Shown here piece after piece: positions 174-37,101 of a DNA stretch of 37,101 nucleotides. A program made the translations under genes and the position numbers. Origin of the DNA: Nitrospinota bacterium (GTDB lineage Bacteria > Nitrospinota_A > UBA7883 > JACRGQ01); NCBI GenBank assembly GCA_016200345.1, contig JACQEX010000022.1, positions 1 through 37,101 of the forward strand. The letters are read 5' to 3'. Every line of letters begins with the position of its first letter. Within the stretch, counting starts at the first letter, position 1. The notes under the pieces are model-generated. The model ran no database searches and had not been told where the DNA came from. It saw nothing but the letters and a program-made list of their open reading frames with translations.

Positions 174-1676
174 GTGCAAAGTTGGTTGGATTTTTTCGTT
201 GGAGCGGCATTGGATAATCTTTCACAAAAAGTGAACAAAGACGATTCTAGTACTCATGCCGGACTTTTGTCCTTACGTGCCAAGCTTATACGCTCCTTCG
301 TCGTGGTGGGGGTCATCGGCGTCTCCATAATGGCGGCTGTCATGCTGATTTACCAATACAACGTCTCAAAAGAGGAATTCATCTCGCAATCGCGGGAAAG
401 GGTGGAGCTTATCAGAACCGGCCTGCTTTCAACCATGATGGCGACCGGGGACCAGGAGACAATAAGGCGGACGGTTGACACGTTTAAGAAAAAGGTCAAC
501 TTTCATTTTCGCATGGTGCGCGGGGCGCACGTGCGAATGCAGTTCGGCGACCGCGAGGGGGAGATTCCCCGCGACGAGGTGGAAAGGGACGTTTTAAGCG
601 GGGCGTTGGGGGAGTTTTCGAGCCTTGAGGGGGACACGTTTAGGTTTGTGGCGCCGTTTAAGACGGACGAGCGTTGCGGCAGATGCCACGATGGGATGGA
701 CCGCAAGCCGGTTCCGGCGGGGATTGTGAACGGGCTGGCGGAATTTGTGTTCGACGTGTCCGAGGCGAGAAGGCACGCGATAATTTTGATGATGGAGACA
801 ATTCTCTTTGTGGTGGCTATTATGGCCTTCACGGGCATCGCCTTGTATTTGACTCTGATTCGGTCGGTTGTGAAGCCGGTTGGAAAAATAGCCGACGCCG
901 TCGGGGCGATAAGCTCCGGCGACATGAATTTTACGCTTGGCGAACCGGAAAGCATCGAGATTGCCGTGCTTACAAGACAGGTGACAAGCATGGCCGAGGC
1001 GGTGAGCGCGAGACGGGTGGAGCACGAGGCGGAGTTGCGGGAGGAACAAAAGAAAAACGAGCTGATACGGTCGTTTGCGGTGGAGCACGCGGAGAAGCTA
1101 GGCATCGCCGACCAGGCGGACGTTTCCGGGCTTATCAAGCGGCTTTCGTCCGCCGTGTCGGAGGTGGAAAAGGCCGACATGCTTCGCATAATCTGCCAGT
1201 TCGTCAAAACGGAAAAAAAGGAGATACACCTTACAAACGACCCGTCGCTCATTCGGCCGGCCGCCATTTACCTCACCGACCTTATCGCCGGGAAAAACGG
1301 TGGGATTAGAAAAGGGGCGATGGAGCTTGCCTTGGAGGAGGCCATTACAAATTCCATGATTCACGGGAATTTGGAGGTCGAATCAATTTTAAAAGAGGAG
1401 GATCCGCAAAGGTTTGACGCGCTGGTCGCGGAGAGGGGACAAACCGATCCGTACCGGACGCGGGAGGTAAAGATTTTTTACGAATACTCGGGCACGGAGG
1501 CGCGCTTTGTCATCGCGGACATGGGGGACGGTTTTGACTGGAGGGCCAGGGTTGAAAAGGAGGTCGAGCCGGACATGATGCCGCACGGACGGGGGATATT
1601 CATAATCCGGGCGTTTGCAAAAAGTTTGATGTACAACGACTCCGGCAATTCAATGACCATCACCTTCGAAATTTAA
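174..1676 (+). CDS. membrane sensor protein: TM helix, periplasmic domain with a CXXCH motif, second TM helix, HAMP domain, C-terminal GHKL/HATPase_c domain (RsbW/SpoIIAB-like); no recognisable DHp H-box
   Basis: Sole ORF at this locus (overlapping antisense frames treated as artefact); GTG start directly after an in-frame TAA. Hydrophobic segments at about aa 40-62 and 203-227. CGRCH at aa 167-171 lies between them. HAMP-like amphipathic segment follows TM2. C-terminus carries an N-box-like EEAITNSMIHG, a G1-like DMGDGF and a G2-like GRGIFII. Confidence 0.6.
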   Translation: MQSWLDFFVGAALDNLSQKVNKDDSSTHAGLLSLRAKLIRSFVVVGVIGVSIMAAVMLIYQYNVSKEEFISQSRERVELIRTGLLSTMMATGDQETIRRTVDTFKKKVNFHFRMVRGAHVRMQFGDREGEIPRDEVERDVLSGALGEFSSLEGDTFRFVAPFKTDERCGRCHDGMDRKPVPAGIVNGLAEFVFDVSEARRHAIILMMETILFVVAIMAFTGIALYLTLIRSVVKPVGKIADAVGAISSGDMNFTLGEPESIEIAVLTRQVTSMAEAVSARRVEHEAELREEQKKNELIRSFAVEHAEKLGIADQADVSGLIKRLSSAVSEVEKADMLRIICQFVKTEKKEIHLTNDPSLIRPAAIYLTDLIAGKNGGIRKGAMELALEEAITNSMIHGNLEVESILKEEDPQRFDALVAERGQTDPYRTREVKIFYEYSGTEARFVIADMGDGFDWRARVEKEVEPDMMPHGRGIFIIRAFAKSLMYNDSGNSMTITFEI

Positions 1677-1677
1677 A

Positions 1678-1734
1678 GCAGTAAACGACCATATACTTCC
1701 GCCATGCAAGTCAGAGCGTGCATCATTGCCACCA
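1678..1734 (-). repeat. inverted dispersed copy (about 88% identity) of a segment of the tandem array at the 3' end of the window (36966-37022)
   Basis: Reverse complement of 1678-1734 aligns with 36966-37022 (tggtggcaatgatgcacgctctgacttgcatggcggaagtatatggtcgtttactgc versus tagtggcaataatacacactctgacttggatggcggaagtacatggtcgtttactgc). Confidence 0.7.
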
Positions 1735-1736
1735 AT

Positions 1737-1787
1737 GGTAGGCACGGCAATCCTGCCGTGCAGGGCGACAGGATTGTCGCCCCTACC
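1737..1787. repeat. compound hairpin element: outer stem GGTAGG/CCTACC enclosing two perfect tetraloop hairpins (CACGGCA-ATCC-TGCCGTG and GGGCGACA-GGAT-TGTCGCCC)
   Basis: Perfect inverted repeats read directly from the sequence. The 12-mer GGTAGGCACGGC also occurs in the spacer units of the 3' tandem array. Sits between the convergent sensor and permease genes. Confidence 0.6.
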
Positions 1788-1803
1788 GGATTGGGAAAAT
1801 ACA

Positions 1804-2925
1804 CTAGCCGAGTTTTCTGCGGAAGCGGAGAATGCTAAGCGAAAGCACCAGCGCGCCGATGGCCAAAAGCGCGACGGCGTCGGGCCACAAAACGTCGAGG
1901 CCGGTCCCCTTTAGGAATATCGCGCGCACCGCCTCGAGCATATAGCGCAGGGGAACGGCGAGCGTCACGTATTGTATCGCCTGCGGCATGTTGGCGATGG
2001 GAAAGACGAAGCCCGAAAAATACATGAACGGAATAAAAAAGCCGAACTGCCCTATCATCAGCGCCTGTTGGCGGGTGTTTGCGATGGTGGAGACAAAGAG
2101 GCCGATGCCGAGGGTGGTTAGGATGAACGCGAGGGCCATGACGTAAATCAGGCCGATGTTTCCGCGCGGGGGAACCTCGAACCAATAAATGGCCACCAGC
2201 ATGACGAGCGTCACGTCCACCATGCCGACCAGCACGAACGGCAACAGCTTCCCTAGAATCAACTGGTACGGCTTGATTGGGGCGACCAACAGCTGTTCCA
2301 GCGTGCCTATCTCCTTTTCCTTTACGATTGCCATCGCCGTGATGGTCAGGGTTACTATCATAAGCACCAGCACGACCACGGCGGGAATCATGAAGTTTCT
2401 GCTTTTGAGGGACTCGTTGTACAGAACCCTGTATTGCGGCGTAATGCCGCCGGGTTTGACGGGCGAGGTTTCGAGAAGTTTTTCCGCCAGCGCGCGGGAG
2501 TAGTTGTTGATGATGAGGGTGGAGTATCCGAGCGCGATGTTTACGGAGTTGGCGTCGGTTCCGTCGGCTATCAGCTGTAGCCGCGCCGTGCGGCGGGCGA
2601 GCACGTCCGCTGAAAACTTCCTCGGTATCACGAGCGCAATCCACGCCTTTCCGCGCTCCAATTGTTCGTCGGTTTTTTTGTCCGAGTCGAGCCACGCGGA
2701 AATTTCGAAGTAGCCGGAGTTTGTGAATCCGTTTATCAGGCTCCTGCTTTCGCTCGTCCGGTCGGCGTCGTAAATCGCAATCGGTATGGAGCGCACGTCG
2801 GTGGTGGCGGCGTATCCGAGGAGGACGAGCTGTATCACCGGTGCGACTATGACCATGAAGCGCATTCTTTTGTCGCGCGAAAGCTGTTTTAGCTCCTTGA
2901 TGATGAGATGGTAAACCGCCCTCAT
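1804..2925 (-). CDS. ABC-2 family transporter permease (YbhR-like)
   Basis: 373-aa ORF, six predicted TM helices in the C-terminal half, large N-terminal extracytoplasmic loop. Stop overlaps the upstream permease gene by 4 nt. Confidence 0.85.
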   Translation of the reverse strand: MRAVYHLIIKELKQLSRDKRMRFMVIVAPVIQLVLLGYAATTDVRSIPIAIYDADRTSESRSLINGFTNSGYFEISAWLDSDKKTDEQLERGKAWIALVIPRKFSADVLARRTARLQLIADGTDANSVNIALGYSTLIINNYSRALAEKLLETSPVKPGGITPQYRVLYNESLKSRNFMIPAVVVLVLMIVTLTITAMAIVKEKEIGTLEQLLVAPIKPYQLILGKLLPFVLVGMVDVTLVMLVAIYWFEVPPRGNIGLIYVMALAFILTTLGIGLFVSTIANTRQQALMIGQFGFFIPFMYFSGFVFPIANMPQAIQYVTLAVPLRYMLEAVRAIFLKGTGLDVLWPDAVALLAIGALVLSLSILRFRRKLG

Positions 2926-27151: not shown

Positions 27152-28048
27152 TCACTTTTTTATATAGGCGAGGAGGGATTTGGCGACGTGCTCGGCGAGT
27201 TTCACGGGGACGGCGTTTCCGATTATCTGCTCCACGTTCGTCGCGCCCCCGACAAGCTTGAAACTTTTCGGGAACGTCTGGACCATGCTTCTTTCCCTCG
27301 TGGTCAGCGGGCGGAGTCCGTGGATTTTCGCGGCGTCTCCCGGATGGCCGGGGTAGCCCTTTGGCACGGGCCTGTTTACGCCGCGCACCGTGGGGCTTGG
27401 CTCGTCCATTCCGAAAACGCCCCTTCTTGAATAGCTTCTCGGATGGCGGTAGTAATGCTCGACGCCGAGGCTCTTTCCAAAATAATCGCGCATGGTCGTC
27501 TTTTTTGTCGTCAGGCCGTCCGCGAGAAAACTTTCCAAGAATCCGTCCTTGGCGCCGACGGCTCCGATTACGAAAAGCCTTTTTCTTTTCTGCGGGACGC
27601 CGCAGTAGCTAGCGTCCAGAACTTTGGCGGTTATTCCGTAGCCGGATTTTGAAAAAACTTTTCGCGCCTCCGCGAGGGTTTTGGAGTTTAGGGCGAGCGG
27701 GACGTTTTCCATTACGAAATATTGGGGATGAACCGTGCAAACAATCTCGGCGAAGGAGATGGTGAGGTCGGCCTTGCCGCGCGCCTCGTCCCTTTTTCCG
27801 GCGGACGAGAAATCTTGGCACGGCGGGCCGCCGATGATTATTTGCGGGTTGAATTTTTTTATTTCCGACGGCGAGTTTTTGTCCGAGAGGTCGCGCAGAA
27901 AGATCGGATGTCCGTGGAAATTGGCCGCGTACAAATCCACGGCCTTGTCCCAGCCGTCGTATGCGGCGACGATTTTACAGCCGGCGTTAGCAAAGCCAAG
28001 GGAAAGTCCGCCCCCCCCGGCGAACAGGTCAACCGTCCTTAACTCCAT
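27152..28048 (-). CDS. DNA (cytosine-5)-methyltransferase, Dcm-like, with no restriction-endonuclease partner
   Basis: Motif I DLFAGGGGLSLGF, motif IV GGPPCQDFSSAGKR, motif VI ENV. 298 aa. Confidence 0.9.
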   Translation of the reverse strand: MELRTVDLFAGGGGLSLGFANAGCKIVAAYDGWDKAVDLYAANFHGHPIFLRDLSDKNSPSEIKKFNPQIIIGGPPCQDFSSAGKRDEARGKADLTISFAEIVCTVHPQYFVMENVPLALNSKTLAEARKVFSKSGYGITAKVLDASYCGVPQKRKRLFVIGAVGAKDGFLESFLADGLTTKKTTMRDYFGKSLGVEHYYRHPRSYSRRGVFGMDEPSPTVRGVNRPVPKGYPGHPGDAAKIHGLRPLTTRERSMVQTFPKSFKLVGGATNVEQIIGNAVPVKLAEHVAKSLLAYIKK

Positions 28049-34331: not shown

Positions 34332-36056
34332 ATGACCATTAAAAAGCTCCAGAAACTACCCGAGGTTCAACAGCTTCTAAAACTTGGCAAAGGCAAGGGG
34401 TTCGTAACCCACAAGGAGTTCGCCACCGCTTTTCCGCCCAACCTCTTCAATGGCGACCAGCGCGACAGCCTTTCCCGCTATTTCGTCGAGGAAAACTCCG
34501 TTCCCATCACCTCCGACGAGGAAAAGAAGCCGCATAAGGCCGCAAAGCCGGTAGTAAACTCGACCTTGGCGGACGAGGTGGAGGACGTTCCTTCGCTCTC
34601 CTCCGAGGATCCGGTCAGGATGTACCTAAAGGAGATGGGGAGCATTCCGCTTCTTACACGCGAGGGCGAGGTTTTCATCGCAAAGCGGATAGAGACCGCG
34701 CAAAACAACATTCTCGACGCGATCGTGACCTGCCCCCTGACGATGGAGGAGATCCTAAAACGCCTCGCCGGGCTGAAGGACGGAAGCATTCCGGTCCAGA
34801 CGCTCGTCAACTGGGGGGACGTGGAGGAGACGCCGCTTACAAAAATTATATCCGAGGGGAAGAGGGTGGAGCGCACCATCGGCAAACTGAACAACGCATA
34901 CCTGGACTGGCGCAAGTTCAACTCCAAACCGGCGCCGAAGAAACAGACCCCCAAGGAGGCGGCCAAGGTCGTCGAGAAAAATAAAAAGCACATAGAGGTG
35001 TTGAGGAAACGGCTGGGCGACATCAACCTCAACCAGGGGCGGTTAGACGAGATAATCGAGGCAATCGGCGTTAAAAACCGCGCGTGCCTCTCGCTGGCGC
35101 ACGAGATTGACAAAATGACCGTCTCGTTGGAGCCGCCGGCCGCCGTCAAGGGAAAGAAAAAAGGGAAGGCCGTCCACGTCGTCCACCACAAGCCGGTGAA
35201 CAAGGCGGAGGTGAAGAAAAAAATTCTCGTCGCGCGGGCGAAGTTGAAGGTGCTTGAAAAAGAGACCGGCCTTGGCGGGCCGGTTTTGGCCGCGATAAAG
35301 AGAAGGATAGACATAGGCCGGCTGACCGACAGACAGGCGAAGAAGGAGCTTGCCGAGGCGAACCTTCGCCTCGTGGTCTCCATTGCGAAAAAATACACGA
35401 ACCGCGGCTTGCAGTTTCTCGACCTGATTCAGGAGGGAAACATCGGCCTTATGAAGGCGGTTGACAAGTTCGAGTACCGCCGCGGCTACAAGTTTTCGAC
35501 CTACGCCACGTGGTGGATTCGACAGGCAATCACGAGGGCCATCGCCGACCAGGCGCGGACGATAAGGATACCGGTGCACATGATTGAGACCATCAACAAG
35601 CTCATCCGAACGGCGCGGCACCTTGTGCAGGAGCTGGGGCGCGAGCCGAAGCCGGAGGAGATAGCGCTTAAGATGGGCATGGCGGTGGAGAAGGTTCGGA
35701 AGGTTTTGAAAATCGCGGAGGAGCCGATTTCTCTCGAGACGCCGATTGGCGAGGAGGAGGATTCGCACTTAGGGGACTTTATCGAGGACAAGAAGATGCT
35801 CTCGCCGGTTGACTCGGTGATTAAGATGAATTTGAAGGAGCAGACCGCGAAGGTTCTGCAGTCGCTCGCGCCGCGCGAGGAGATGGTGCTGAGGAAACGC
35901 TTTGGAATCGGGTTGGACGCGGAGCACACGCTCGAGGAGGTCGGCCAGGATTTCGAGGTGACGAGGGAGCGCATAAGGCAGATAGAGGCGAAGGCGTTGC
36001 GGAAGCTGAGACATCCGAGCCGGAGCAAGCGGCTTCGCAGTTTCGTGGAGTCTTAG
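34332..36056 (+). CDS. rpoD: RNA polymerase sigma-70 factor RpoD
   Basis: Regions 1.2, 2 ([37 protein letters not shown]), 3 and 4 ([17 protein letters not shown]). Confidence 0.95.
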
Positions 36057-36229: not shown

Positions 36230-36306
36230 GGGCCTATAGCTCAGTTGGTTAGAGCCCCCGGCTCATAACCGGGTTGTCCTAGGTTCAAGTCCTAGTGGGC
36301 CCACCA
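36230..36306 (+). tRNA. tRNA with CAT anticodon (elongator Met or lysidine-type Ile2; G1-C72 pair argues against initiator)
   Basis: 77-nt cloverleaf folded by hand: acceptor GGGCCTA/TGGGCCC, D-arm GCTC-AGTTGGTTA-GAGC, anticodon arm CCCGG-CTCATAA-CCGGG, T-arm CTAGG-TTCAAGT-CCTAG, CCA encoded. Confidence 0.85.
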
Positions 36307-36363
36307 AAATAAACAAAACTCCCCATTCGGGAGAGTTTTGCTTATTTTTGATGTAGGCCCGCT
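36299..36363 (+). repeat. 65-bp direct repeat copy 1, spanning the last 8 nt of the tRNA plus its terminator
   Basis: Identical at every base to 36498-36562. Confidence 0.9.
36315..36349 (+). terminator. tRNA intrinsic terminator (AAAACTCCCC-attc-GGGAGAGTTTT + GCTTATTTTT)
   Basis: Hairpin plus T-run 9 nt after the tRNA CCA end. Duplicated within the second 65-bp repeat. Confidence 0.7.
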
Positions 36364-36497
36364 AGGACTTGAAGGCGAGCCGACGGCCCGACGAGTAGGA
36401 GGGCATTCCGCACGTGATGTGCGGAATAGTCGGCGAGGTGAGCCTACGCAGGAGGGAACACGATGTTCCCGACGTAGTAGGCATTCCACAGTCTTTC

Positions 36498-36562
36498 GCC
36501 CACCAAAATAAACAAAACTCCCCATTCGGGAGAGTTTTGCTTATTTTTGATGTAGGCCCGCT
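36498..36562 (+). repeat. 65-bp direct repeat copy 2
   Basis: Perfect copy. The 134 bp between the copies contains two perfect hairpins (ATTCCGCAC-gtgat-GTGCGGAAT and GGGAACA-cga-TGTTCCC). Confidence 0.9.
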
Positions 36563-36573
36563 TTTGGCCGGTA

Positions 36574-37101
36574 CGCACCAAGTACACGCTAAAGCGTGTA
36601 CCCACCGGAAAAAGCAATTGGGTGGGTGCGGCCTTTTTTTTCTCCCGGTAGGCACGGCCTTTAGGCTGTGCTACATTGGCGCTTTCGCGGCAACGTACAG
36701 GTTAAAACCTGTACCCACCGGAGAATGCAATTTGGTTTGGTAGGCACGGGCTTTTTTTTCTCCCGGTAGGCACGGCCTTTAGGCTGTGCTACATTGCCGC
36801 TTTCGCGGCAACGTACAGGTTAAAACCTGTACCCACCGGAAAAAGCAATTTGGTGGGTGCGGGTTTTAACCTGTACACCTTCGCATTGGCGCTCCGCGGC
36901 AATGTACACACTAAAGTGTGTACCCACCGGAAAAAGCAATTTGGTGGGTGCGGGCTTCTCGGCAACCATCCTCTAGTGGCAATAATACACACTCTGACTT
37001 GGATGGCGGAAGTACATGGTCGTTTACTGCGGCCTGCACTCCTTCGCATTGGCGCTCCGCACAAATTAAAACCTAAAGCGTGTAACCACCCGAAAAAGCA
37101 A
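36574..37101 (+). repeat. tandem array (at least 5 units, periods 113/118/91/162 bp, truncated by the window end) of a composite multi-hairpin element; REP/BIME-like or a tandem small-RNA gene array
   Basis: Each unit has a 20-bp perfect palindrome with a TAAA loop whose stem covaries between copies (GTACACGC / GTACAGGT / GTACACAC), then CCCACC...GGTGGG and a T8 run. The spacer carries hairpins GCACGGCC-ttta-GGCTGTGC and TTGCCGC-tttc-GCGGCAA and a TGcTACATT extended -10-like motif. Confidence 0.8.

Follow-up and report, generated by a model that had tools for sequence, protein, structure and literature searches.

A small structured element directly behind bacterial tRNA genes that looks like a gene-less insertion module

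Why does a contig of a Nitrospinota bacterium carry the 3' end of a tRNA gene twice, with 134 bp of DNA in between? The window analyzed here is the entire contig, 37,101 nt long and ending at position 37101. Close to this end, on the + strand, lies a tRNA gene with anticodon CAT (36230..36306), located by ARAGORN and by the Rfam tRNA model (69.4 bits). Upstream is rpoD (34332..36056, +; Pfam sigma-70 regions 1.1 to 4), the last gene of a conserved rpsU-yqeY-dnaG-rpoD block that is also present in relatives. ARAGORN labels the tRNA Met; we take C4-G69 and C5-G68 to suggest tRNA-Ile2. A sequence-only reading of the region had reported a perfect 65-bp duplication starting in the last 8 nt of this tRNA, and a repeat search bears this out. 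The two copies (36299..36363 and 36498..36562, both +) are 100% identical, begin with the tRNA terminus GCCCACCA, are spaced 199 bp apart and enclose 134 bp (36364-36497). Each copy does contain the terminator that was claimed for it, in the form of a terminator-like hairpin (36319..36333, CTCCCCATTCGGGAG, on the + strand, and 36518-36532) that scores on both strands in a terminator scan. The repeat array said to follow the duplication is there as well; it is unrelated to the 65-mer, starts at ~36569 and runs to the contig end. An exact repeat of 65 nt in 37 kb cannot be attributed to chance. The question is what the enclosed segment is and how the repeat arose.

Closer inspection of the window revealed more internal order than a terminator repeated on either side of a filler. 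Repeat copy 1 is made up of the last 8 nt of the tRNA, the hairpin, which is preceded by an A-run and followed by a T-run, and 11 nt from the start of an inverted tRNA copy. This inverted copy (36353..36373, +), absent from the sequence-only reading, is a 21-nt inverted repeat of the T-loop, the T-stem 3' strand and the acceptor 3' strand, 90% complementary over 21 nt to tRNA positions 36284-36304; its last 10 nt, AGGACTTGAA, form the conserved 5' end of the element described below. The hairpin is the tip of a near-palindrome of ~90 nt extending into the tRNA, with 39 identical positions in its alignment and arms of 42 and 48 nt. Then comes a core (36364..36495, +) modeled as a three-way junction and matched by a covariance model at 112.5 bits (E = 3e-23). 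On the + strand, a curated alignment places the 5' strand of the closing helix P1 at 36364-36370, a P2 domain of two sub-hairpins with a CGAG/CGAG tandem G.A motif at 36376-36437, a P3 domain at 36442-36482, and the P1 3' strand at 36483 plus 36490-36495. The tail (36483..36505, +) is a direct copy of the 3' part of the tRNA from the T-loop onward, recognized by comparison with the tRNA (9/20 ungapped); its T-loop/T-stem part is decayed, and its last 8 nt are exact. Repeat copy 2 consists of the tail end, the second hairpin and 11 nt of a second inverted copy, and similarity between the copies ends at 36562/36563. The insert folds strongly (z = -5.6), and 0 of 200 shuffles fold as well. A small ORF within it (36414-36743), which follows an AGGAGG, was rejected as an explanation: the AGGAGG/start-codon arrangement is missing, on inspection by eye, in the related copy at locus L001.

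The same arrangement, which we call element E, recurs elsewhere. We found 10 complete copies at nine loci, a small sample, and additional partial ones. They lie behind seven different tRNA genes, with six types of anticodon among them (CAT, Arg-ACG, Arg-TCG, Gln, Leu and Ser). The hosts are Nitrospinota, Elusimicrobiaceae, a Planctomycetota-like lineage and others, so that E is spread over at least two bacterial phyla and probably more. Two of the loci, in Nitrospinota relatives with the same tRNA, were found by synteny alone: L001 has one copy with a different terminator on each side, and L015 has two diverged copies in tandem. A pattern scan of metagenomes gave seven real matches, six of them distinct, and one chance match in coding DNA. 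The pattern had no tRNA requirement, and every real match nevertheless lies 18-75 nt 3' of a same-strand tRNA (CAT, Arg-ACG, Gln-TTG, Arg-TCG, Leu-GAG or Ser-TGA). This distance and orientation hold for all copies of E, apart from the 281 nt that separate the tRNA from a second tandem copy. Since the pattern imposed AGGACTYGAA, GGGGCC and GGCCRAGTCC, the invariance of these motifs among the scan matches is circular; so too is the apparent limit to tRNAs with RAGTCC T-loops, as RAGTCC is part of the pattern and other T-loops exist, e.g., GGTTCGAATCC. Rfam 15, searched in gathering and permissive modes with the window copy and seven other loci, matched only the tRNAs, with all other best matches at chance level. 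A literature search that included the sequence motifs retrieved no description of E; its coverage was incomplete and it is weak evidence of novelty. E is apparently a hitherto undescribed family. With moderate confidence, we favor reading the 134 bp as one member of this conserved and structured family located directly behind tRNA genes, seemingly a tiny insertion module that carries a functional RNA.

The sequence-only reading had mainly likened the 65-mers to attL and attR. On this account, an integrase-mediated island entered at the tRNA and has since disappeared or shrunk, and the 134 bp are its meaningless remnant. A direct repeat that includes a tRNA 3' end is what such an event leaves behind, and the tRNA flank is a synteny breakpoint that holds small foreign genes in relatives. 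The supposed remnant is, however, conserved in structure and sequence across phyla and tRNAs, which already contradicts this account. Moreover, no integrase, transposase or reverse transcriptase occurs in the 36 kb upstream within the window, and none of these was seen among the neighboring ORFs scanned in L015, L038, L039 and L040 or among the called genes listed for other E loci; in L001, an aconitase-like gene directly follows the element. A phage or prophage origin was rejected after blastn of all ten cores against 50,697 phage records returned no match, and pattern scans of IMG/VR yielded only chance matches in coding DNA, or none. Measured against genomic islands and prophages, E has the direct repeat with the tRNA 3' end, lacks an adjoining integrase and has 134 bp in place of kilobase-scale cargo. 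We thus consider a degraded island very improbable. The insert is not an excision or integration scar, because its core is conserved and covarying and recurs in relatives at the same tRNA and in other phyla at different tRNAs, the 3' end of the local tRNA being copied in each case. For the same reasons, conservation of the core and copying of the cognate tRNA 3' end at each locus, it is neither a randomly captured small element nor filler between duplicated terminators. Two parts of the sequence-only reading hold up. The duplicated tRNA 3' end is supported as the mark of an insertion at a tRNA gene, and the flank does appear recombinationally active: synteny is lost right after tRNA(CAT) in every comparison with relatives, among which the presence of the element varies.

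The simplest alternative is a plain local tandem duplication of the tRNA-end/terminator module by replication slippage, with no element involved. An exact 65-mer implies recent copying or conversion, and tandem arrangements of one unit plus a fraction are typical of slippage or unequal crossing-over. This would account for the 57 nt of flank identity, and for that part of the repeat the proposed terminator duplication stands; it does not account for the conserved 134-bp core, and in L001 the core lies between two different terminators. A terminator-only repeat does not describe the locus either, as the sequence between the copies is conserved. With L001, L015 and the metagenome copies refuting slippage as a full explanation, we regard it as extremely improbable.

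What, then, is conserved in E? In the 3' direction from the tRNA, the order is spacer, inverted copy, core and tail, and the unit measures ~200 bp (190-215 bp outside the window). In five of the nine loci, the window included, the spacer is a terminator-like hairpin. The inverted copy covers the T-loop and T-stem of the tRNA, sometimes reaches into the acceptor 3' strand, and ends in AGGACTYGAA, which is present in 10/10 complete copies. The core, ~110-130 nt, is a three-way junction closed by P1, in which P2 carries tandem G.A pairs and P3 has a GGCC(G)/(U)GGCC base, a purine-rich internal loop and a variable hairpin. The tail is a direct copy of the 3' part of the neighboring tRNA from the T-loop (C)RAGTCC onward. 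It is identical to the cognate tRNA in L001, L041 and L044 (20/20) and in L043 (18/18), nearly so in L039 (19/20) and L040 (18/20), and decayed in the window copy, in both L015 copies (L015a and L015b) and in L038.

The fold is supported by compensatory change. RNAalifold on four copies found such changes in 20 of 40 pairs. In a curated alignment of the 10 copies, 92.4% of cells pair and both partners have changed in 27 of the 47 pairs; no shuffle out of 500 reached this level, and slid controls gave 31-42%. The curated alignment was segmented by hand with N padding and fitted to the structure by hand, because alignments made with MAFFT alone misregister the P2 sub-hairpins. Each copy has the same architecture, with folding z scores of -3.9 to -6.8 in 9 of 10 and -1.5 in L044. 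The strand and RNA character of E are indicated by a G.U pair conserved in 8/10 copies, by G.U cells outnumbering A.C cells 10 to 2, by the replacement of the CGAG/CGAG tandem G.A motif with Watson-Crick pairs in L015b, and by the L038 copy being GC-rich within an AT-rich genome. By the compensatory-change criterion, E qualifies as a predicted structured non-coding RNA, on an alignment fitted by hand. No promoter for E was found. The terminator-like hairpin that separates the tRNA from E in five loci means that transcription of E there would need read-through; in L043, E sits inside a tRNA-Leu/His/Pro cluster with no terminator, an arrangement that we count as support for possible co-transcription with the tRNAs. 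One feature fits RNA pairing less well. Where the tail is decayed, the inverted copy still matches the tRNA and not its own tail, so the P1 helix as drawn may not be a maintained pairing, and a DNA-level process, such as quasipalindrome correction, could contribute to the match of the inverted copy.

The sequence-only reading had proposed comparing the same tRNA locus in relatives, and this comparison gave a mixed outcome: L001 and L015 carry E, and the close Nitrospinota relatives L030-32 and L034-36 have the same tRNA without it. As these relatives are too diverged downstream of the tRNA, the Elusimicrobiaceae were used to define an empty site. Behind ispE-tRNA-Gln, E is present in L040, L051/52 and L053 and absent in L058. 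In L058, the terminator and flank that stand after the tail in L040 come immediately after the tRNA; L049 has lost the core and kept a compensated stem. Comparing filled with empty sites suggests that hairpin, inverted copy and core sit as one unit behind the tRNA and ahead of the terminator that originally followed it. The identity of cores points in a similar direction: the window core is 70-74% identical to copies behind tRNA-Arg in the Planctomycetota-like lineage and only 47-55% identical to Nitrospinota copies behind the same tRNA, a pattern that we read as probable horizontal movement.

These observations bear on the possibility that E is a host-encoded, vertically inherited sRNA gene of tRNA operons, derived from local duplication of a tRNA 3' trailer and matured by tRNA-processing nucleases, with absence reflecting loss. 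Such a gene could well be retained across Elusimicrobiaceae species whose IspE proteins are only 70-75% identical, as E is; it could also lie within a tRNA operon, as in L043, have a strongly conserved structure and be free of mobility genes in the 36 kb upstream. Vertical inheritance is harder to reconcile with one core family behind six tRNA types with a matching tail each time, a core phylogeny incongruent with both host and tRNA, a native terminator kept after the tail at the filled site, and diverged tandem copies. We judge a host sRNA gene possible, if unlikely. E. coli 3'ETS-leuZ and other sRNAs from tRNA 3' external transcribed spacers resemble E in position, as non-coding RNAs that immediately follow a tRNA and are probably freed by the nucleases of tRNA processing, but they are short trailers with no conserved junction fold, no copy of the tRNA 3' end and no insertion polymorphism.

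Among mobile elements, the closest parallels to the insertion module that we favor are islands that integrate into tRNA genes, i.e., those with P4-type tyrosine integrases, genomic islands generally, and the integrase-less cis-mobilizable elements (CIMEs). They too insert in the segment from the T-loop to the 3' end, restore the tRNA with an element-borne 3' end, leave the displaced 3' end as a direct repeat and form tandem arrays at one tRNA. E differs in its unit of only ~200 bp, in having no integrase, protein genes or recognizable arm-type sites, and in a content made up of a single conserved structured core that uses at least six tRNA types. MITEs and REP/BIME sequences are likewise small, protein-less and strongly folded with inverted ends, but E is not dispersed, stands behind tRNAs in one orientation and has a duplicated flank of 20-65 bp. 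A MITE was rejected on these grounds: the 37-kb window has a single copy, ~460 kb of related loci yielded none elsewhere, and a tRNA precedes every copy.

Integron attC sites and the attP(+) site of CTX phage offer a different parallel. In these sites, as in E, structure is better conserved than sequence, a variable palindromic center lies between inverted core sequences, and a duplicate of the site stands on either side of the inserted DNA. The arrangement of E, a direct copy followed by loop, inverted copy, remainder and a further direct copy, is also what hairpin-site integration produces. By analogy, E could be a recombination site that acts as folded single-stranded DNA, in which the inverted copy and the tRNA-like strand mimic a double-stranded tRNA 3' end and a tyrosine recombinase from elsewhere inserts a small circle or neighboring cassettes. 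Integration of a folded hairpin site would be expected to leave the succession that is seen, with the tRNA 3' end first, then the hairpin, the inverted copy, the remainder and the displaced 3' end. Long near-palindromes through the terminator, an inverted copy that tracks the tRNA and not the tail, and the foreign-looking genes next to or inside units (the L039 E2 425-aa ORF, the L015 low-GC ORF and the L040 GIY-YIG protein) would also fit. On the other side, neither an integron-type nor any other integrase was found at any of the loci, a ~200-nt unit is very small for a circle, and a conserved junction of several helices, with tandem G.A motifs and loops conserved in sequence, is more typical of an RNA than of a hairpin recombination site. 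In addition, E has no IntI or Xer context and no R/L boxes, and its conserved three-way junction lies outside the palindrome. We regard a single-stranded DNA site as quite improbable. An integron cassette with its attC fits poorly, as no integrase was found in the window and the core sequences are TTCRAGTCC and GGACTYGAA, not GTTRRRY.

Known RNAs were compared with E as well. The tmRNA and other RNAs with tRNA-like ends have a 3' end with the 3' strands of T-loop/T-stem and acceptor and often CCA, as the tail does. Most E copies, unlike tmRNA, have no acceptor 5' strand and no intact T-arm, and the tail copies the neighboring tRNA instead of forming a dedicated alanine-type end; neither ARAGORN nor Rfam called a tmRNA. 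The omega/reRNAs of TnpB from IS200/IS605 and the bridge RNAs of IS110 join a conserved scaffold of ~120-180 nt to a short segment that matches the target or flank and changes with the target. E shares this plan but has no adjacent TnpB, IscB or IS110 recombinase and no Rfam match, and its target-matching segments, the inverted copy and the tail, are mutually complementary. Self-cleaving ribozymes (hammerhead, twister, hatchet, pistol and HDV-like) gave no Rfam match at E <= 10, and the junction strands of the core, GAA(nn), 2-4 nt and 0 nt, do not by inspection fit a hammerhead. We also considered 5S rRNA, given the three-way junction and the loop-E-like GAUGGAG/GAGAGUG in P3; no model matched and the P2 arm differs.

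How might the proposed module have entered a tRNA gene? We envisage an insertion into the part of the gene that runs from the T-loop to the 3' end. The incoming unit, made up of the spacer hairpin, the inverted copy and the core, would have brought a replacement tRNA 3' end and its own hairpin, and the displaced 3' end would have remained as the tail. The unit would be joined through recombination within the sequence that it shares with the tRNA. This could be a site-specific reaction catalyzed by an enzyme provided in trans, or it could rely on short homology, for which the tRNA and the tail would serve as arms. The core would function as an RNA, transcribed from the tRNA strand either together with the tRNA or by read-through, and closed by pairing of the inverted copy with the tail or, alternatively, with the 3' half of the tRNA itself. 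In the window, the 65-mer would be a hairpin module flanking the core on both sides, its second copy either opening another unit or representing the native hairpin; interruption 11 nt into the inverted copy by the unrelated repeat array would set the length of the repeat. L039 has an analogous truncated or interrupted second unit. Because neither a recombinase nor a conserved partner protein was found, the insertion chemistry is pure inference: the ORFs adjoining or within copies, a 241-aa ORF in L015, the 425-aa ORF inside the second unit (E2) of L039 and a 272-aa GIY-YIG-domain protein in L040, are mutually unrelated and are not recombinases. A counterpoint is that simple recombination into a different tRNA type would create a chimeric tRNA, and the proposal leaves the avoidance of this unexplained. 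A bolder version, which we consider rather unlikely, treats E as a mobile element based on RNA, either self-sufficient or assisted in trans. It would be a small ribozyme, or a scaffold for a guide RNA, that is steered to the T-loop-to-3'-end segment by its two tRNA-matching ends, the inverted copy and the tail, and that exploits the near-universal sequence conservation of tRNAs as portable homology across phyla. If so, bacteria would have a hitherto undescribed kind of mobile element, an RNA cassette that homes to tRNA genes and has no protein.

If the reading of E as an insertion module is correct, tRNA genes in at least two, and probably more, phyla carry an unnoticed passenger with a 125-nt RNA fold and a spare tRNA 3' end, which rebuilds the gene that it enters. 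It would represent a new RNA family and the smallest known module with the tRNA-integration logic of genomic islands, with no genes of its own. Two questions follow: does the sequence conservation of tRNAs offer a universal landing pad for horizontal transfer with no dedicated integrase, and what role does a conserved junction RNA have at the ends of tRNA transcripts? The element may also partly explain why assemblies break at this tRNA in these lineages.

The tRNA gene at 36230-36306 (plus strand, anticodon CAT) is recognized by both ARAGORN and Rfam and lies downstream of a conserved rpsU-yqeY-dnaG-rpoD block; the window is one entire contig (37.1 kb) of a metagenome-assembled genome whose closest relatives are other Nitrospinota MAGs. 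ARAGORN calls it Met(CAT), with C4-G69, C5-G68 and a tRNA-Ile2-like body, and we take it to be, probably, a lysidine-dependent tRNA-Ile2. In Escherichia coli, ileX also lies near rpoD. A repeat search confirmed the exact 65-nt direct repeat described by the sequence-only reading, with copies at 36299-36363 and 36498-36562, 199 bp apart and starting with the last 8 nt of the tRNA. Both copies include the terminator-like hairpin that had been noted, which scores positively on both strands, and the 134-bp insert folds strongly (z = -5.6 against shuffled sequence); the locus had thus been described accurately. Not mentioned was an inverted repeat of 21 nt, 90% complementary, between the T-loop/acceptor 3' strand of the tRNA (36284-36304) and 36353-36373, a stretch that extends over the insert's first 10 nt, AGGACTTGAA.

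The same tRNA was compared at RpoD-anchored loci of other Nitrospinota. At locus L001 (RpoD 82% identical), a terminator stands behind the tRNA, followed by AGGACTTGAA, hairpins over about 125 nt, AAGTCCTAGTGGGCCCACCA and a different terminator; AAGTCCTAGTGGGCCCACCA reproduces 20 nt of the tRNA 3' part exactly. Locus L015 (70%) carries two tandem units of this element, about 66% identical to each other. The tRNA is present and the element absent in other close relatives, L030-32 (84%) and L034-36 (70%, a sister lineage of L015). The earlier suggestion that this 3' flank is recombinationally active is borne out: synteny breaks off no more than a few bases from the tRNA in all pairwise comparisons, and the presence of the element varies.

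Is the element confined to this tRNA? A single exact-pattern scan of the JGI metagenome collection for AGGACTYGAA...GGGGCC...GGCCRAGTCC, a pattern of which the tRNA is not part, returned eight loci, one a chance match in coding DNA and seven real (two of them identical). In all seven, a tRNA gene precedes the element by 18-75 nt on the same strand, and the tRNAs differ: CAT (L038/L042), Arg-ACG (L039), Gln-TTG (L040), Arg-TCG (L041), Leu-GAG (L043) and Ser-TGA (L044). Judged by the names of its IspE homologues, the L040 host belongs to Elusimicrobiaceae; that of L039 is nearest Planctomycetota by LysRS, though at only 58-60% identity. The window core shares 70-74% identity with the cores of L039 and L041 but only 47-55% with those found behind the same tRNA in its Nitrospinota relatives, which argues for independent acquisition, or for old paralogy with differential loss.

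Past GGCC-RAGTCC, each scan locus copies the T-stem 3' strand, the acceptor 3' strand and, where encoded, the CCA of its own tRNA. This tail matches the tRNA at 20/20 positions in L001, L041 and L044 and at 18/18 in L043, the exact match in these four reaching a few bases beyond the tRNA end; it matches at 19/20 in L039 and 18/20 in L040, and is decayed, with indels, in the window, both L015 units and L038. Bases 5' of AGGACTYGAA prolong complementarity to the cognate T-stem, perfectly so in six of the ten copies and for five different T-stem sequences. This inverted copy extends to the acceptor strand in the window, L038 and L040. The sample comprises ten complete copies only, and three conserved motifs, as well as the restriction to RAGTCC T-loops, came from the scan pattern itself.

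RNAalifold applied to four copies (window, L001 and both from L015) gave one shared fold, a three-way junction in which 20 of 40 pairs have at least one sequence compensated on both sides. All ten complete copies adopt the same architecture when folded individually. The closing helix, P1, has 7 bp (AGGACUY with RAGUCCU) and is followed by a junction strand starting GAA. P2 is a long arm, which in the "long" type forks into two hairpins, one short with a conserved GAC...AGGA loop, the other of 8-12 bp. A strand of 2-4 nt ending in GG leads to P3, which directly abuts P1; its base is GGCC(G)/(U)GGCC, and above this come an internal loop rich in purines, or tandem G.A, and a hairpin that varies. 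Because MAFFT misregistered the inner hairpins, the alignment was segmented by hand, N padding keeping the aligner from altering it. In this curated alignment, which was fitted to the structure, standard pairs occupy 92.4% of 328 cells, and both partners change in 27 of 47 pairs. The observed pairing values were matched by 0 of 500 column shuffles, and sliding the 3' partners by 1-3 columns reduced pairing to 31-42%. A covariance model built from six copies recovered three of the four held out (L038/L042 at 43 bits, L043 and L040 at 31-32 bits), missed L044, and brought up no additional copy across the window and about 460 kb of further loci.

The G.U pair at the P3 base is kept in eight of the ten copies, G.U cells outnumber A.C cells by 10 to 2, and the symmetric CGAG/CGAG at the P2 base forms tandem G.A pairs, replaced in one L015 unit (L015b) by two Watson-Crick pairs. 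All three suggest that the fold is single-stranded and read from the tRNA strand, RNA being the simplest case, and the core is most likely an RNA made together with the tRNA. Moreover, the L043 element sits between tRNA-Leu and tRNA-His/Pro genes without a terminator, so co-transcription is likely there. The L038 element, at about 64% GC, stands out within an AT-rich genome.

The clearest series of filled and empty sites comes from ispE-tRNA-Gln loci of Elusimicrobiaceae. In the empty locus, L058, the tRNA is immediately followed by the terminator CCCCGC...GCGGGG and CCGGAAGAAGGCCAAC. A closely similar terminator and flank are found in L040 after the tail, and between the tRNA and that terminator lie a second terminator, the inverted copy of the tRNA end, an extra hairpin, the core and the tail. 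The same arrangement, with the extra hairpin altered by compensatory substitutions, is found in L051/52 and L053, from different species (IspE 75% and 70% identical to that of L040). In L049 (82%), the P1 strands and core are gone, and the outer stem is retained with a compensatory change. The unit has therefore been maintained through speciation, yet can be lost. Separately, L056 (about 1330-1372) and L053 encode identical IspE, but one has AGGGCGAGAA in place of the otherwise invariant AGGACTCGAA, and the downstream core differs too; the L056 contig stops short of the P1 3' strand.

The 65-mer itself is the inner portion of a near-palindrome of about 90 nt, which spans the tRNA from its T-loop to the 3' end, then the terminator-like hairpin and the inverted copy, with 39 identical positions over arms of 42 and 48 nt. 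Near-palindromes of comparable quality occur in L038 and L040. A fuller layout than that of the window is seen in L039, where the tRNA is followed by two units, the first 31 nt of the second being 98% identical to the first. This second copy (806-2358, minus strand) is interrupted within the P2 arm by a 1.45-kb stretch with a 425-aa ORF on the opposite strand, which has no match in Pfam, NCBIfam or PDB; beyond it, unit 2 resumes with its 3' half, followed by an exact tail and a third hairpin copy. Cargo, an insertion or a rearrangement could account for the 1.45-kb stretch. The parallel with L039 suggests that the second 65-mer of the window is the start of a second unit, or else the native hairpin. 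The perfect identity of the two 65-mers implies recent copying or conversion; in contrast, the 15 nt preceding the second, the T-loop/T-stem part of the tail, are decayed.

The second 65-mer ends 11 nt into an inverted copy, where an unrelated repeat array begins (36569-37101). This comprises five same-strand copies of a two-hairpin unit of about 50 nt (GTACAnnnTAAAnnnTGTAC-CCACCGGAAAAAGCAATTTGGTGGG-TGCGG), irregularly spaced at 113, 118, 91 and 162 nt (TRF: period 118 x 2.4). The array occurs only at the contig end, the contig stopping within it, and its unit is present in none of 60 fetched loci. It proved neither CRISPR-like nor kin of the tRNA element.

The fold is conserved, the element keeps strictly to one position and orientation behind tRNA genes, and its tails are cognate; filled and empty sites occur, as do tandem and truncated units. 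No mobility genes were found in the 36 kb upstream within the window or among the neighbors examined at other loci, and the element is absent from phage collections. A unit would enter by recombination within the segment of the tRNA gene from T-loop to 3' end, supplying, as islands do, a replacement tRNA 3' end and hairpin, without an enzyme of its own. The homology arms could be the highly conserved 77-nt tRNA and the tail of about 20 nt, in which case recombination between the direct repeats would explain losses as well. Alternatively, a recombinase supplied in trans would act on the shared (C)RAGTCC segment. Decayed tails occur alongside well-kept inverted copies matching the tRNA itself, and in the minimum-free-energy fold of the tRNA-plus-unit transcript (36230-36562; z = -12.7) the T-arm and acceptor 3' half pair with the inverted copy across the terminator, the cloverleaf being given up. 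It may thus be the tRNA end with which pairing is maintained. Quasipalindrome correction or another process at the DNA level may be at work, as may a folded single-stranded DNA site like attC or the CTX attP. Read-through transcripts of the tRNA and unit, should they exist, could serve as substrates of RNase III or represent misfolded tRNA precursors.

The element works like a miniature tRNA-integrating island and resembles a structured sRNA; it differs from islands in lacking both integrase and cargo. Tests for membership among integron cassettes, MITEs, tmRNA, known ribozymes and Rfam families also came out negative, no family in Rfam 15 matching any copy. A limited literature search found no description of it, which is weak evidence of novelty. 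We place it with known tRNA-gene insertion modules, from which it departs in encoding no protein and in having a conserved RNA fold at its center; with modest probability it represents a wholly new category, an RNA-based element that homes to tRNA genes.

Elsewhere in the window, a solitary C5 cytosine DNA methylase gene (27152-28048, minus strand) lies in what looks like a lower-GC patch, judged from chance model hits nearby at 39-41% GC; no restriction enzyme was recognized among its scanned neighbors. The 3' flank of the CAT tRNA is both a synteny breakpoint and a frequent assembly end, as is that of the Elusimicrobiaceae tRNA-Gln; contigs of relatives end at or just past the CAT tRNA in L003, L004/L045, L033 and L046. 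Small foreign-looking genes also occur at these flanks (L030 9952-10385, L015 12406-13131 and L040 122-940), and they comprise a toxin-antitoxin pair (RelE/MqsA), a low-GC ORF whose GCSGAP motif recalls serine proteases, and a gene for a GIY-YIG-domain protein.
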